This document shows positions 61,468 through 64,000 of a DNA stretch of 64,000 nt, one piece after another; the stretch's first letter is position 1; every line of letters starts with the position of its first letter. The stretch is from Escherichia coli (GTDB lineage: Bacteria; Pseudomonadota; Gammaproteobacteria; Enterobacterales; Enterobacteriaceae): NCBI RefSeq assembly GCF_001677475.2, contig NZ_CP015229.1; one strand, given 5' to 3'. The notes below the pieces were generated by a model. That model had not been told where the DNA came from. It worked only from the letters and a program-made list of their open reading frames with translations, and made no database searches. The position numbers were made by a program, and so were the translations under genes.

Positions 61468-61971
61468 ATGGCTATTCAAATCTCAGTTGAAACTCTTTCC
61501 CCGATCACCCATAACCAAATCCCTGTCATTACTACCGAGCTTTTGGCACAACTTTATGGCACCGAAACTAATAACATCAAAGTGAACTATACACGCAATG
61601 CCGAGCGTTTTGTTTGTGGGAAACACTACTTCAAATTGGAAGGGACTGAGTTGCGGGAATTTAAGAACAAGGTTACTCAAAGTAACTTAGTTGCACCGCG
61701 TACAAAGCACCTCATCCTCTGGACAGAACGCGGAGCAGCCCGTCACGCCAAAATGCTCGAAACCGATCAGGCCTGGGAAGTGTTCGAAAAACTCGAAGAC
61801 TGTTATTTCAGCCAAAAACAACCACCAGCAGCACAAAACTCCCTCAACGAAAATGATGGATGCGCATTACTGATCCACTTCGATAAACACGGTCAGGTAG
61901 AGTTCACGGAAAAAGTCCCCGCCGATGCGATGGTATGCACTCTGGAACGGTTTAATATGAGACGACAATAA
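61468..61971 (+). CDS. ORF6N-domain protein (phage antirepressor-like DNA-binding protein)
   Basis: 167 aa ORF; N-terminal pattern IPVITTELLAQLYGTETNNIKVNYTRNAERFVCGKHYFKLEGTEL typical of ORF6N/KilA-N-like domains. Confidence 0.65.
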   Translation: MAIQISVETLSPITHNQIPVITTELLAQLYGTETNNIKVNYTRNAERFVCGKHYFKLEGTELREFKNKVTQSNLVAPRTKHLILWTERGAARHAKMLETDQAWEVFEKLEDCYFSQKQPPAAQNSLNENDGCALLIHFDKHGQVEFTEKVPADAMVCTLERFNMRRQ

Positions 61972-62048
61972 CTCAGTCCGCCTGGCGCCGATTATTCTGG
62001 CCGGTTTTGTAACCTGAGTGTCATTTACATGATCCAACAGGAAATGGC

Positions 62049-63548
62049 GTGACGCTCAATACTTCTCAGGTCAGTTACTATATGACTCAGCGTAAGAAAG
62101 GTATAACTCAGCATATCTCGGCCATGAAGGCTGGTATCTCAGTCCGTTCTGGTCGTCGGATCGAAAAAGGAGAGTGGGCAAAAAACAGTGTTCGGCACTG
62201 GCGCACACGCAAAGATCCTCTGGAAGCTGTGTGGGACAGCATGCTTGTTCCTCTGTTGAAAGAGAGGCCGGCTCTGACACCAACAACTCTACTGGAGATG
62301 CTACAGGATAAATATCCCGGCCAGTACCCCAACAGCCTTCGAAGAACAATGCAACGGCGGGTTCGCGAATGGAAACTACAGTATGGTACAGAGCAGGAGG
62401 TCATGTTCCGCCAGCAACATCAGCCCGGCCTGCGAGGCCTGTCGGACTTTACTGAACTGAAAGGTGTAGTTGTCACCATCGCCGGTAAGTTGTTGGCGCA
62501 TAAGTTGTATCACTTCCGTCTGGAATGGAGCCACTGGAGCTGGATGCGGGTTGTTCTGGGTGGTGAGAGCTTCTCTGCTCTGGCTGAAGGCCTGCAGGAA
62601 GCCCTCGGACAACTGGGCGGAGTGCCGGTAGAACATAAAACGGACAGCCTGAGGGCAGCATGGAAACAACAGGGCGAAGATGGACGCCGCGAGCTGACTG
62701 AGCGTTATGCTACTCTCTGTCAGCACTACGGAATGCAGGGCGTACACAATAATGCCGGTCGGGGCCACGAAAATGGCTCGGTTGAAAGTGCCCACGGACA
62801 TCTGAAAAGGCGTATCTGTCAGGCGCTGATACTGCGGGGCAGTAACGACTTCAGCACCATAGAAGAATATCAGGCCTTCATCACTCAGCAGGTTATGCGG
62901 CACAACCGTAACAATCAGGATCTGGTCAAGGAAGAACGTCTTCATCTGAAACCGCTGCCGCTTCGTCGCAGTGCTGACTATGATGAGCTGACTGTGAGGG
63001 TTAGTCGCAGCAGTACCATCAATGTGAAGCACGTCGTCTACAGCGTACCTTCCCGGCTTGTAGGTCAACTGTTACGGGTCAGGTTATGGGACGATCGTCT
63101 GAGCTGTTACGTTGGCAGCAGCGAGGTCATGAGCTGCCCTCGCGTCAGACCAGAAAAAGGGAAGACGCGGGCCCGTCGTATCGACTTCCGACATGTGATC
63201 GACAGTCTGGCAAAAAAGCCCGGTGCGTTCTGCCATGCAACGCTGAGAAATGACATCCTGCCGGACGATGAATGGCGGAGGCTGTGGCGTCGCTTATGTA
63301 ATCATCTGGAGCCCGATATGGCAGGAAGGCTGATGGTACATGCCCTGAAACTGGCTGCAGGATACGACGATATCTCAGTCGTGGCAAAAGGTATGGAGCA
63401 GATGCTGAATACCCCGGGAAACGTGGATCTGCACCGGCTGATGCGCTTCCTGGGTATAAAAGAAAAGGCGTTGCCGGTAGTCAATGTGATACAGCATAAC
63501 CTGAGCAGTTATGAGCAACTACTGCGTGGCAAGGGAGGTTCGCAGTGA
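62049..63548 (+). CDS. istA: IS21-family transposase IstA
   Basis: 499 aa ORF with N-terminal HTH and integrase-core region. Confidence 0.8.
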   Translation: MTLNTSQVSYYMTQRKKGITQHISAMKAGISVRSGRRIEKGEWAKNSVRHWRTRKDPLEAVWDSMLVPLLKERPALTPTTLLEMLQDKYPGQYPNSLRRTMQRRVREWKLQYGTEQEVMFRQQHQPGLRGLSDFTELKGVVVTIAGKLLAHKLYHFRLEWSHWSWMRVVLGGESFSALAEGLQEALGQLGGVPVEHKTDSLRAAWKQQGEDGRRELTERYATLCQHYGMQGVHNNAGRGHENGSVESAHGHLKRRICQALILRGSNDFSTIEEYQAFITQQVMRHNRNNQDLVKEERLHLKPLPLRRSADYDELTVRVSRSSTINVKHVVYSVPSRLVGQLLRVRLWDDRLSCYVGSSEVMSCPRVRPEKGKTRARRIDFRHVIDSLAKKPGAFCHATLRNDILPDDEWRRLWRRLCNHLEPDMAGRLMVHALKLAAGYDDISVVAKGMEQMLNTPGNVDLHRLMRFLGIKEKALPVVNVIQHNLSSYEQLLRGKGGSQ

Positions 63549-64000
63549 GCAATATCCATCACCTTGAACATAGCCTGCGTAAACTACGCCTGACACGAGT
63601 TGGAGCTGAATGGCACGCTCTGGAAAAACGAGCGCTGGCAGAAGGCTGGACACCATCGCGCTATCTTCTGACGCTATGCAATGAAGAACTCCTGTGGCGC
63701 GAGAGTGAAAAACTGCGTCGTTATAAAAAGGAGGCCCGGTTGCCAGTTGCCAAAACGCTGAGCGAATACGACTTCAGTCAGGTGCCGGAACTGAATGGAG
63801 CTCAGTTCCGGCAACTCTGTGAAACGACAGACTGGGTTGATGCAGGAGAAAACGTTCTGCTGTTCGGAGCCAGCGGGTTGGGGAAAAGCCATCTGGCGGC
63901 AGCGATCGTGGATGGCGTAGTAGGTCAGGGCTACCGGGCCCGGTTCTACAGCGCAGGAGAGCTGTTGCAGGAACTACGTAAAGCCAGAGCTCAGTTGAAA
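63545..64000 (+). CDS. istB: IS21-family ATP-binding helper IstB (partial, continues beyond window)
   Basis: GTG start overlapping istA stop; reads VSNIHHLEHSLRKLRL...; Walker A GASGLGKSHLA. Confidence 0.75.
   Translation, partial: MSNIHHLEHSLRKLRLTRVGAEWHALEKRALAEGWTPSRYLLTLCNEELLWRESEKLRRYKKEARLPVAKTLSEYDFSQVPELNGAQFRQLCETTDWVDAGENVLLFGASGLGKSHLAAAIVDGVVGQGYRARFYSAGELLQELRKARAQLK

Follow-up and report, generated by a model that had tools for sequence, protein, structure and literature searches.

The closest described counterpart of the locus analyzed here is the isrK-orf45-anrP module of prophage Gifsy-1 of Salmonella Typhimurium. It comprises an IsrK-type sRNA with a terminator, a C4-like structured RNA (the STnc1160 region) and a gene for an ORF6N protein of 186-187 aa, and its promoter, PisrK, has been demonstrated by experiment (PMC4825925). 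The product, AnrP, induces Gifsy-1, and the published model requires orf45 to be translationally coupled to anrP (Hershko-Shalev et al. 2016, PMC4825925). Related ant modules are found in Stx-converting lambdoid phages (among them PA28, P27 and Phi24B), where Ant promotes prophage induction and, in Phi24B, has a P22-Ant-like C-terminal domain (PMC3064807). In the immI operon of P1/P7 (c4, icd, ant), the leader contains an antisense RNA that targets the operon itself. This RNA has two antisense segments complementary to two target sets, which lie on its upstream and its downstream side; the downstream one blocks a ribosome-binding site, the loop sequences determine specificity, and the operon encodes an antirepressor. 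In P1 the blocked site belongs to icd, to which ant is coupled. The functions of C4, Icd and Ant in P1 are described in PMC8201110, which cites Citron and Schuster 1990, and in references therein. The immI-type RNAs are represented by Rfam models RF01695 and RF03163.

We analyzed a 64,000-nucleotide stretch of Escherichia coli DNA, referred to below as the window, with attention to the module near its end (Table 1). Taken as a whole, the locus is very probably best explained as an IsrK/C4-controlled antirepressor module of a lambdoid prophage residing in serU, disabled by ISEc10. None of these components is of a new kind. The region very probably represents the int-distal end of a lambdoid prophage that has integrated into the 3′ part of the tRNA-Ser gene serU. 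The 62 nt of the serU fragment agree exactly with the 3′ end of K-12 serU (b1975), identity with K-12 stops at 61085, and ARAGORN finds no complete tRNA within the fragment. The window covers only this end of the prophage; the opposite one was read from NZ_LR882057, which has the same junction and at its other prophage end reads int-serU-mtfA, with serU intact. The AT-rich DNA bordering the fragment is common only to two complete genomes with the same serU junction (H26 and H27), and in other prophages that bear the module matching begins only at 61227. The adjoining J-lom-stf-tfa genes identify the prophage as lambdoid. The module is placed after tfa at the prophage end, on the opposite strand; in Gifsy-1 it lies directly after antQ. 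A preliminary description of this DNA had put the locus beside an att junction, which the serU identity bears out, and had called it part of an island, which is more exactly a lambdoid prophage. The ORF6N gene had also been taken for the first gene of the element, a view that does not hold, the promoter and both RNAs standing ahead of it. Below-threshold Rfam matches in 60400-64000 (Plastid-psbl-rps4, tmRNA, sX4, BM-sr0117 and RNase_MRP) correspond to the serU fragment itself or to chance.

Table 1. Features of the prophage end, the putatively RNA-controlled module and the inserted element (window coordinates)
Feature	Coordinates	Strand	Description or basis
serU 3′ fragment	61024..61085	-	62 nt, tRNA-Ser(CGA); remnant of prophage integration, on the bacterial side of the att junction distal to int
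AT-rich prophage end	61086..61203	.	Derived from the attP arm; restricted to phages that integrate at serU
Sigma-70 promoter of the module	61204..61233	+	TTGACC, 18-nt spacer, TATATT; equivalent of Gifsy-1 PisrK
IsrK-like sRNA	61240..61314	+	Two hairpins and intrinsic terminator; Rfam isrK RF01394
C4 antisense RNA	61340..61421	+	Long closing stem and two internal hairpins; Rfam C4 RF01695
Downstream C4 target set	61423..61460	+	UUGGUCU 61423-61429, GAAAAAGGA 61452-61460
Truncated anrP-like ORF6N gene (putative antirepressor)	61468..61971	+	167 aa, ATG start; Pfam and PHROG matches
Left copy of target-site duplication	61950..61955	.	6 bp, GTTTAA; basis: allele L098
ISEc10 (IS21 family)	61956..64000 (window end)	+	Left end TATGAGACGACAA...; 99.8% identity to annotated copies
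istA, IS21-family transposase	62049..63548	+	Intact, 499 aa, GTG start
istB, AAA+ helper ATPase	63545..64000	+	First 151 of 251 codons, cut by window end

The promoter, the IsrK-like sRNA and the C4 RNA form the regulatory leader of the ORF. The promoter matches 10 of 12 consensus positions, and its TTGAC and TATATT boxes are kept at equal spacing in the leaders of Gifsy-1, PA28 and STEC308. The IsrK-like sRNA scores 72.9 bits against the isrK model (gathering score 50; E = 1e−13 over the whole window), and its terminator consists of a hairpin at 61294-61309 followed by T6. It carries an upstream set of C4 targets, UUGGUCU (61265-61271) and GAAAAAGG (61279-61286), and the match to c4-a1b1 (RF03163) that overlaps it is slightly under threshold (42.7 versus 46.7 bits). 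The C4 RNA, whose Rfam family belongs to clan CL00128, matches its model over the full length (positions 1-87; 59.0 bits, gathering score 45), and the MFE fold (−41.6 kcal/mol) reproduces the closing stem and the two internal hairpins. Its antisense segments are UCCUUUUUC (61379-61387) and AGACCAA (61394-61400). The former is exactly complementary to GAAAAAGG(A) at the 61279 and 61452 sites, the latter to UUGGUCU at 61265 and 61423, and the complements are 7-9 nt long. The downstream GAAAAAGGA is the Shine-Dalgarno region of the ORF6N gene and ends 8 nt (7 intervening bases) 5′ of the ATG. In a set of 40 distinct leaders, the loop at −90 to −97 takes about nine different forms, each of them matched by the site at −15 to −23 and usually by a second target copy near −190 to −200. 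This covariation provides a tidy comparative confirmation of the antisense mechanism for lambdoid AnrP-type modules. It extends the established heteroimmunity principle of P1/P7 c4 and introduces no new one.

At the DNA level, the leader and the N-domain align to both Gifsy-1 isrK-anrP and Stx-phage ant. The window module has the same promoter boxes as Gifsy-1, the same order of elements and two loop-target pairs in the same geometry. Both loop/target sequences differ from those of Gifsy-1 (CGGUGAU/AUCACCG and ACGCCAA/UUGGCGU), implying a different specificity. The orf45 coupling model was considered for the window and rejected. In Gifsy-1, the 45-codon orf45 ends in an ATGA that overlaps the anrP start; the homologous ATG of the window, at 61344, opens a frame of 16 codons that ends at 61394, 73 nt before the gene, and there is no overlap with the anrP-like ORF. 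Since the orf45 uORF is not conserved here, the Gifsy-1 mechanism cannot be transferred in detail. In the Stx-phage modules, DNA identity to the window is 76% over the leader plus the first ~118 codons, and the same UCCUUUUUC/GAAAAAGGA pair lies across the Shine-Dalgarno sequence; their second loop/target pair belongs to the ACGCCAA type, and PA28 mixes types. Stx-phage Ant is longer (224 aa in PA28) and has a C-terminal domain other than that of the window's relatives, and its modules, unlike the one studied here, lie in the nin region. The features described above for immI, from the embedded antisense RNA with its two segments to the antirepressor, all appear to be shared by the window module. 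It differs from P1 in that the ribosome-binding site that would be blocked is the antirepressor gene's own, in the absence of icd, in encoding an ORF6N-family protein (186 aa when intact) instead of Ant1/Ant2, and in being hosted by a lambdoid rather than a plasmid prophage.

The protein encoded by the ORF matches Pfam ORF6N (PF10543) over residues 12-96 with 77.6 bits (cut-off 27.8; E = 9.2e−22) and PHROG 2379 'anti-repressor' with E = 3e−79. All of its strong PHROG matches are antirepressor families; no NCBIfam model was found for it. The label 'antirepressor-like' given in the preliminary description therefore agrees with the domain search that it had proposed. The intact form has 186 aa and is 57% identical to Gifsy-1 AnrP (STM2616) over its full length, C-terminal domain included; together with the homology to Stx-phage Ant, this points to a putative antirepressor activity. 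For proteins with this particular C-terminal domain, an antirepressor role is putative throughout. A PDB sequence profile search for solved structures resembling the protein gave no match, and Foldseek retrieved nothing from the PDB with E < 0.3. At rank 16 of the Foldseek list stands the Mbp1/APSES DNA-binding domain (TM 0.50 on target, not significant), which fits the proposed KilA-N/APSES relationship.

The 167-aa protein does not have the full-length architecture of its family, which comprises ~186 aa with a conserved C-terminal domain. Among 4434 homologs, intact relatives are 184-188 aa long, and against the 187 positions of the PHROG 2379 profile the window protein covers 1-165, whereas an intact relative covers 1-187. 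The native sequence of the ORF ends at 61955, after 162 codons plus 2 nt. The 162 native codons are followed by N-M-R-R-Q-stop, in which the IS supplies the four final residues, M-R-R-Q, as well as the stop. The C terminus is thus chimeric, with the last 23 residues replaced by four. The lost segment is near-invariant at G170, W171, V173, E177, L179, E181, L183 and M184 in 28 homologs. The lost 23 residues are among the best conserved of the protein, which indicates purifying selection on this segment. In the AF2 model, the cut falls within helix 159-168 and helix 176-185 is gone. The ORF6N domain and the RNA genes were left untouched by the insertion.

The inserted element is ISEc10, in agreement with the earlier assignment of istA and istB to the IS21 family. 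IstA matches the NCBIfam model 'IS21 family transposase' (NF033546) with 226 bits (cut-off 160) and is identical to RefSeq ISEc10 IstA at 495 of 499 positions. The visible part of IstB matches PF01695 (IstB_IS21) with 95 bits, is identical to ISEc10 IstB at 150 of 151 positions and contains Walker A (GASGLGKS). Its NCBIfam score (131.8 versus a cut-off of 200) falls below only because 100 codons lie outside the window; in other copies, istB is 756 bp long. No stop or frameshift interrupts istA or the part of istB inside the window, and the ORF6N profile matches; the two refuting conditions named in the preliminary description, a missing profile match and pseudogenized istA/istB, thus do not apply. 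The GTG start of istB (63545-63547) overlaps the istA TGA (63546-63548), as had been noted and as can be read directly; the same 4-bp overlap (GTGA) is annotated by RefSeq in other ISEc10 copies. The left terminal end, TATGAGACGACAATAACT, lies within the window, whereas the right end (reverse complement TATTAGACGTCAACTAGT) comes solely from other copies and from L098, an IMG/VR contig carrying the identical allele; in these, the terminal inverted repeat is imperfect, matching at 13 of 18 positions. The ends of ISEc10 and its duplications of 5-8 bp were derived from five complete copies. The right end of the IS being outside the window, the duplication was read from L098. Of what the check suggested earlier asked for, the IS21 ends and a duplication of 4-8 bp, the window itself gives the left end; the right end comes from other copies and L098, and the 6-bp GTTTAA from L098. 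In nucleotide identity (99.8%), left end, GTGA overlap and length (2410 bp, taken from L098, which puts the end at ~64365, 365 bp past the window) the element is like other ISEc10 copies, its duplication, as read from L098, falls within the 5-8 bp range, and only the insertion site is particular to this locus.

It could be supposed that the 167-aa gene is intact and that an independent IS21 element lies just downstream in intergenic DNA, leaving the gene unaffected, and the ORF is indeed open with a stop of its own and a complete ORF6N domain. This is almost certainly wrong. Matches to uninterrupted ORF6N genes all end at 61953-61955 and the alignment diverges exactly there; uninterrupted homologs, at 96-98.7% identity, run 23 codons further from exactly 61955. 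Most ISEc10 copies elsewhere begin at the base equivalent to 61956, which lies inside the ORF, 16 bp upstream of the present stop. Moreover, L098 shows the displaced remainder of the gene: it has a 2410-bp IS flanked by GTTTAA on both sides, after which the gene resumes with ATTTTATCTGGAGC. The reading is refuted by the homolog alignment, the ISEc10 ends and L098. The earlier statement that the IS21 element follows the gene therefore fails, while the accompanying suspicion that it truncates functions of the mobile element proved right. With the right end beyond the window, one may also ask whether an IS-mediated deletion or rearrangement has eliminated the remainder of the gene, along with neighboring prophage DNA, from the source genome. 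A search of 5426 complete RefSeq E. coli genomes did not find the ORF6N::ISEc10 junction, which occurs in one NCBI draft assembly, Logan contigs of seven samples and one IMG/VR contig; exact matches to the chimeric protein come only from contigs of draft assemblies that break inside the IS. L098 was retrieved by an exact 33-mer search of viral contigs. A look-up of the neighboring DUF4376/tfa protein matched only LR882057. Such a deletion is nevertheless very improbable, given that L098, the only longer sequence with the junction, has no mismatch to the window over all 2533 comparable bases, carries the canonical 6-bp duplication and continues uninterrupted into tfa-stf-lom-J. Past the IS, the source genome is expected to continue with GTTTAA+ATTTTATCTGG; its right side should read as the IS end ...GTTGACGTCTAATA at 64365, followed by GTTTAA+ATTTTATCTGGAGCAACACGG.

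Two further alternatives concern the function of the product. The truncated protein may still be functional, with the ORF6N domain and the β-hairpin of the C-domain sufficing, so that the insertion would be neutral or create a variant allele. The N-terminal domain, the linker and two strands of the C-domain are retained in the AF2 model. A 162-aa allele that was truncated independently is common among other prophages of E. coli, being carried by at least 28 complete genomes and five viral contigs, and the N-terminal domain alone could retain function; free recombination also joins N-terminal modules to unrelated C-terminal domains (L049 and L057). We nonetheless consider retained function rather unlikely: the cut deletes about 1.5 of the two helices of a ~55-residue domain, the missing residues are among the best conserved, and RefSeq marks the 162-aa allele as an incomplete pseudogene. 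Alternatively, the ORF6N protein might not be an antirepressor at all, but a DNA-binding regulator or a moron for phage defense or superinfection exclusion. ORF6N/KilA-N are generic DNA-binding modules, one homolog bears the UniRef name 'KilA-N DNA-binding domain-containing protein', the site after tfa beside att is a typical moron position, and PADLOC reports matches to the candidate defense family PDC-S05 (36.6 bits). These matches, however, are weak and confined to the shared N-domain, and a defense-gene identity was not accepted. The whole leader and N-domain are homologous to modules whose product either induces Gifsy-1 (AnrP, PMC4825925) or promotes the induction of Stx phages (PMC3064807), antirepressor operons (P1 immI) have as their signature a translational lock by a C4-type antisense RNA, and the strong PHROG matches point the same way. 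We give a non-antirepressor role little chance.

Under the preferred reading, that of an RNA-controlled antirepressor module disabled by ISEc10, the outermost prophage module would be an induction switch of the Gifsy-1 isrK/anrP type (P1 immI-like). The anatomy of the locus, the families of its parts, the point of insertion, the duplication (in L098) and the complementarity and covariation of loops and targets are established here; RNA processing, the direction of regulation, antirepressor activity and loss of function are inferred. A constitutive-looking promoter would drive a leader consisting of the IsrK-like sRNA, a leaky terminator, the C4 RNA and the second target set, followed by the antirepressor gene. 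The putative C4 RNA may be processed from the leader transcript and repress in trans. By default, the gene would be transcribed but left untranslated because the two exposed C4 segments pair with the downstream sites, one of which is the Shine-Dalgarno sequence. The upstream sites borne on IsrK would compete for C4 and thereby turn translation on. The antirepressor, once made, would be expected to inactivate the prophage repressor and cause induction, as suggested by AnrP, P1 Ant and Stx-phage Ant. Transposition of the 2410-bp ISEc10 into codon 163, with duplication of the 6-bp GTTTAA, probably disabled the switch here, splitting the small C-terminal domain and exchanging its conserved end for four IS-encoded residues. 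Antirepressor function has thus presumably been lost through the insertion.

For annotation, the locus shows that what seems an intact 'ORF6N protein' beside an IS is an IS-truncated chimera, and that the unit to be recognized is an IsrK/C4-type antirepressor switch under RNA control rather than a single cargo gene. The insertion has probably deprived the host strain of one path to prophage induction, which is of minor relevance to prophage stability; beyond correct annotation, the locus is of little importance.

Three disruptions of the C-terminal domain have been seen, namely, the ISEc10 insertion described here, the 162-aa replacement allele and a frameshift allele, and the IsrK/C4 RNA genes are intact each time. 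These observations might be taken to mean that the domain has been repeatedly and independently destroyed at one AT-rich spot (TTTAAATTTTAT, codons 162-165), suggesting selection for loss of a toxic trigger of induction with the RNAs preserved, a scenario that we regard as distinctly unlikely. If it were true, the retained RNAs could work in trans, giving co-resident prophages with matching loop/target types a 'bar-coded' signal of immunity or cross-talk.

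The analysis corrects the anatomy of the locus in two respects, which is where its value lies: an insertion sequence truncates the antirepressor gene, and regulatory RNAs precede that gene. The preliminary description had placed an ORF6N antirepressor-like gene, followed by an IS21-family element, beside the att junction, and all its ORF coordinates proved exact. Its ORF6N label was borne out by a profile search, in which the 167-aa protein scored 77.6 bits (cut-off 27.8, E = 9.2e-22) with Pfam ORF6N (PF10543); among PHROG families it fits 2379 'anti-repressor' best (E = 3e-79). 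However, the gene is not merely followed by the element, because the left end of ISEc10 (61956) lies inside the ORF. Alignments of uninterrupted ORF6N genes from other E. coli genomes to the window all stop at 61953-61955, and those of most ISEc10 copies in other genomes start at 61956. In a three-way alignment, the window matches the intact genes at 98.7% and 96.4% identity as far as ...GGAACGGTTTAA, beyond which it reads TATGAGACGACAATAAC, whereas the intact genes continue with ATTTTATCTGGAGC, 23 further codons. Thus, the suggestion that the IS might truncate an island function applies to the antirepressor gene itself.

Features of the window, with the evidence for each
Feature	Position	Strand	Evidence or remark
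tRNA cluster Leu(TAA)-Cys(GCA)-Gly(GCC)	3955-4256	-	
DsrA	42782-42868	-	Rfam, 102.5 bits; ordinary chromosomal core sRNA gene
RseX	51204-51293	+	Rfam, 98.7 bits; ordinary chromosomal core sRNA gene
Promoter TTGACC-18-TATATT	61204-61233		predicted
isrK (RF01394)	61240-61314	+	Rfam, 72.9 bits (gathering 50)
C4 antisense RNA (RF01695)	61340-61421	+	Rfam, 59 bits (gathering 45)
ORF6N antirepressor ORF	61468-61971	+	167 aa; Pfam and PHROG matches
Left copy of GTTTAA duplication	61950-61955		
istA, IS21-family transposase	62049-63548		499 aa; NCBIfam NF033546, 226 bits vs 160
istB	GTG at 63545, past window end		matches IstB_IS21

Intact relatives, among 4434 homologues, are 184-188 aa long. In the window protein, 162 native residues remain, followed by N and the IS-encoded M-R-R-Q. 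The lost segment, KFYLEQHGWIVARKEQLVERLMRF, is one of the most strongly conserved stretches of the sequence, G170, W171, V173, E177, L179, E181, L183 and M184 being near-invariant. As modelled by AlphaFold (mean pLDDT 79), the intact protein has an ORF6N domain at its N-terminus (residues 1-114), then a disordered linker (117-129) and a small C-terminal domain of two strands (132-138, 144-151) and two helices (159-168, 176-185). In this model, the ISEc10 cut falls within the first helix of the C-terminal domain and would remove the second. Fold and sequence searches of solved structures with the antirepressor protein returned nothing significant, and the only PADLOC matches were weak ones of the N-domain to a candidate family.

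The element was identified by megablast as ISEc10 (99.8% identity). IstA is identical to RefSeq ISEc10 IstA at 495 of 499 positions, and IstB, for the part inside the window, at 150 of 151. The proposed IS21-family pair stands, the istB GTG overlapping the istA TGA (63546-63548). Since the ORF6N profile matches and istA and the in-window istB carry no stops or frameshifts, neither of the preliminary description's two reservations, a missing ORF6N match and pseudogenised istA/istB, applies. Five complete copies in other genomes were used to define the ends of ISEc10: the termini are TATGAGACGACAA...TTGACGTCTAATA, the length is 2410 bp, the terminal inverted repeat is imperfect (13/18 positions), and the target duplications measure 5, 5, 6, 6 and 8 bp. 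The right end of the window copy is therefore expected at about 64365, beyond the window. In plasmid p1RM9088, ISEc10 is nested in istA of another IS21-family element, IS100kyp, with the duplication AAACTG.

The ORF6N::ISEc10 junction was found in none of 5426 complete RefSeq E. coli genomes. Draft assemblies encode the exact chimeric protein on contigs that end inside the IS. An exact 33-mer search of IMG/VR retrieved one contig, IMGVR_UViG_2721755653_000004, which agrees with the window at each of the 2533 bases that can be compared. There the 2410-bp IS is bounded on each side by GTTTAA, and beyond it lies the displaced 3' end of the antirepressor gene; read from this identical allele, the insertion is apparently a simple transposition that duplicated 6 bp. 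All components belong to described families (ORF6N/AnrP-type antirepressor, IsrK, C4, ISEc10, serU-integrated lambdoid prophage) and near-identical sequences are already public, so that the original finding is real and correctly labelled, yet ordinary; the sole particular feature of the locus is the insertion allele, known from a few draft genomes and one viral contig.

In other lineages the antirepressor gene has been cut independently at nearly the same codon (viral contigs L017, L018, L020 and L040; E. coli EC11, L096:6602-7087; protein P0113). A 162-aa allele, incomplete according to RefSeq, ends ...TLERF*, with homology breaking inside TTTAAATTTT; at least 28 complete genomes carry it, immediately after antiterminator Q. 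A frameshift allele (...ERFKF-LSGTTRLDRCP) was also found. Possible explanations are that the AT-rich run is a hot spot of mutation or recombination, or that selection acts against the C-terminal domain. In two viral contigs (L049, L057), the first ~116 residues are 92-97% identical, but the C-terminal domain that follows is longer and unrelated (218-221 aa for the whole protein), which shows modular shuffling of the ORF6N/leader module among C-terminal domains.

The ORF6N gene, previously taken as the first island gene, is preceded by two RNA genes located between it and the att junction, isrK and C4, both exceeding their curated gathering scores in an Rfam scan of the whole window. The c4-a1b1 target model scored slightly under threshold at 61227-61279 (42.7 vs 46.7 bits). 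An intrinsic terminator is predicted at the end of the IsrK-like RNA, and the predicted C4 fold has a long closing stem and two internal hairpins. The C4 segment UCCUUUUUC (61379-61387) is exactly complementary to GAAAAAGG at 61279 and to GAAAAAGGA at 61452-61460, the Shine-Dalgarno region, ending 8 nt (7 intervening bases) before the ATG; AGACCAA (61394-61400) is likewise complementary to UUGGUCU at 61265 and 61423. The P1/P7 immI operon has the same a'/b' versus a1b1/a2b2 layout. A 16-codon uORF, MIHIEKGSSYGYSNLS (61440-61490, plus strand), with no obvious Shine-Dalgarno sequence, starts 28 nt before the antirepressor ATG and overlaps the gene out of frame; Stx-converting phage PA28 has a similar ORF, MIHKEKGSSYGHQNRS.

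The leader and first ~118 codons share 76% DNA identity with the ant modules of many Stx-converting phages and 69% with Gifsy-1, where STM2616 (AnrP), downstream of IsrK, is 57% identical to the intact protein over its full length. The loop/target pairs are CGGUGAU/AUCACCG and ACGCCAA/UUGGCGU in Gifsy-1, UCCUUUUUC/GAAAAAGGA and ACGCCAA/UUGGCGU in PA28, and UCCUUUUUC/GAAAAAGGA and AGACCAA/UUGGUCU in the window. In 40 distinct leaders from viral contigs, the loop at -90 to -97 comes in about nine sequence versions, each matched by a complementary 7-9-nt site at -15 to -23; this site is usually repeated near -190 to -200. Constant positions, differing sequences and retained complementarity argue strongly that the C4 loop/target pairing is functional.

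In Gifsy-1, transcription from the isrK promoter reaches anrP but yields a translationally silent mRNA, short IsrK activates translation in trans, and AnrP turns on antQ, inducing the prophage (PMC4825925). In P1, the Ant antirepressor is controlled by C4 RNA and Icd (PMC8201110 and references therein), and in Stx phage Phi24B, Ant is proposed to promote efficient induction (PMC3064807). Based on these precedents, the window module may be read as a C4-locked antirepressor switch, in which C4 would by default cover the antirepressor Shine-Dalgarno sequence, decoy sites on IsrK could titrate C4, and the antirepressor, once made, would antagonise a repressor. The Gifsy-1 type of coupling, in which a 45-codon uORF ends in an ATGA overlapping anrP, does not transfer to the window module, because the homologous ATG (61344) opens only 16 codons, with a stop 73 nt upstream of the gene. 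In the window lineage, the ribosome-binding site of the antirepressor gene itself seems to be the direct target of the lock.

Window positions 61024-61085, where ARAGORN found no complete tRNA, are identical to the 3' 62 nt of K-12 serU (tRNA-Ser CGA), and identity to K-12 stops at 61085. In NZ_LR882057, a relative sharing this junction, the element is a defective lambdoid prophage with a frameshifted int, an intact serU and mtfA at its other end. Two bases in the 3' part of the reconstituted serU beside int (L005:25838-25927) are not those of K-12 and the window (TGGAG vs TAGAG, CCCCCAC vs CCCCTAC), as expected if the phage attP supplied that part. Past the IS, the ~49-kb IMG/VR contig, viral by prediction, carries tfa, stf, lom and the C-terminal part of J, all in convergent orientation to the antirepressor gene; this gene order places the module at the int-distal end, next to the tail-fibre genes and after them, whereas it sits after Q in Gifsy-1 and E. 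coli EC11 and in the nin region in PA28.

In NZ_LR882057 (L001:11265-12378), the stretch from zinT to the prophage lacks an annotated yodB CDS, which may reflect a pseudogene or an annotation gap; yodB is open in the window (59894-60454) and present in K-12. The tRNA cluster lies about 57 kb from serU in the window, close to the distance of about 53 kb between the same cluster (leuZ-cysT-glyW) and serU in K-12.
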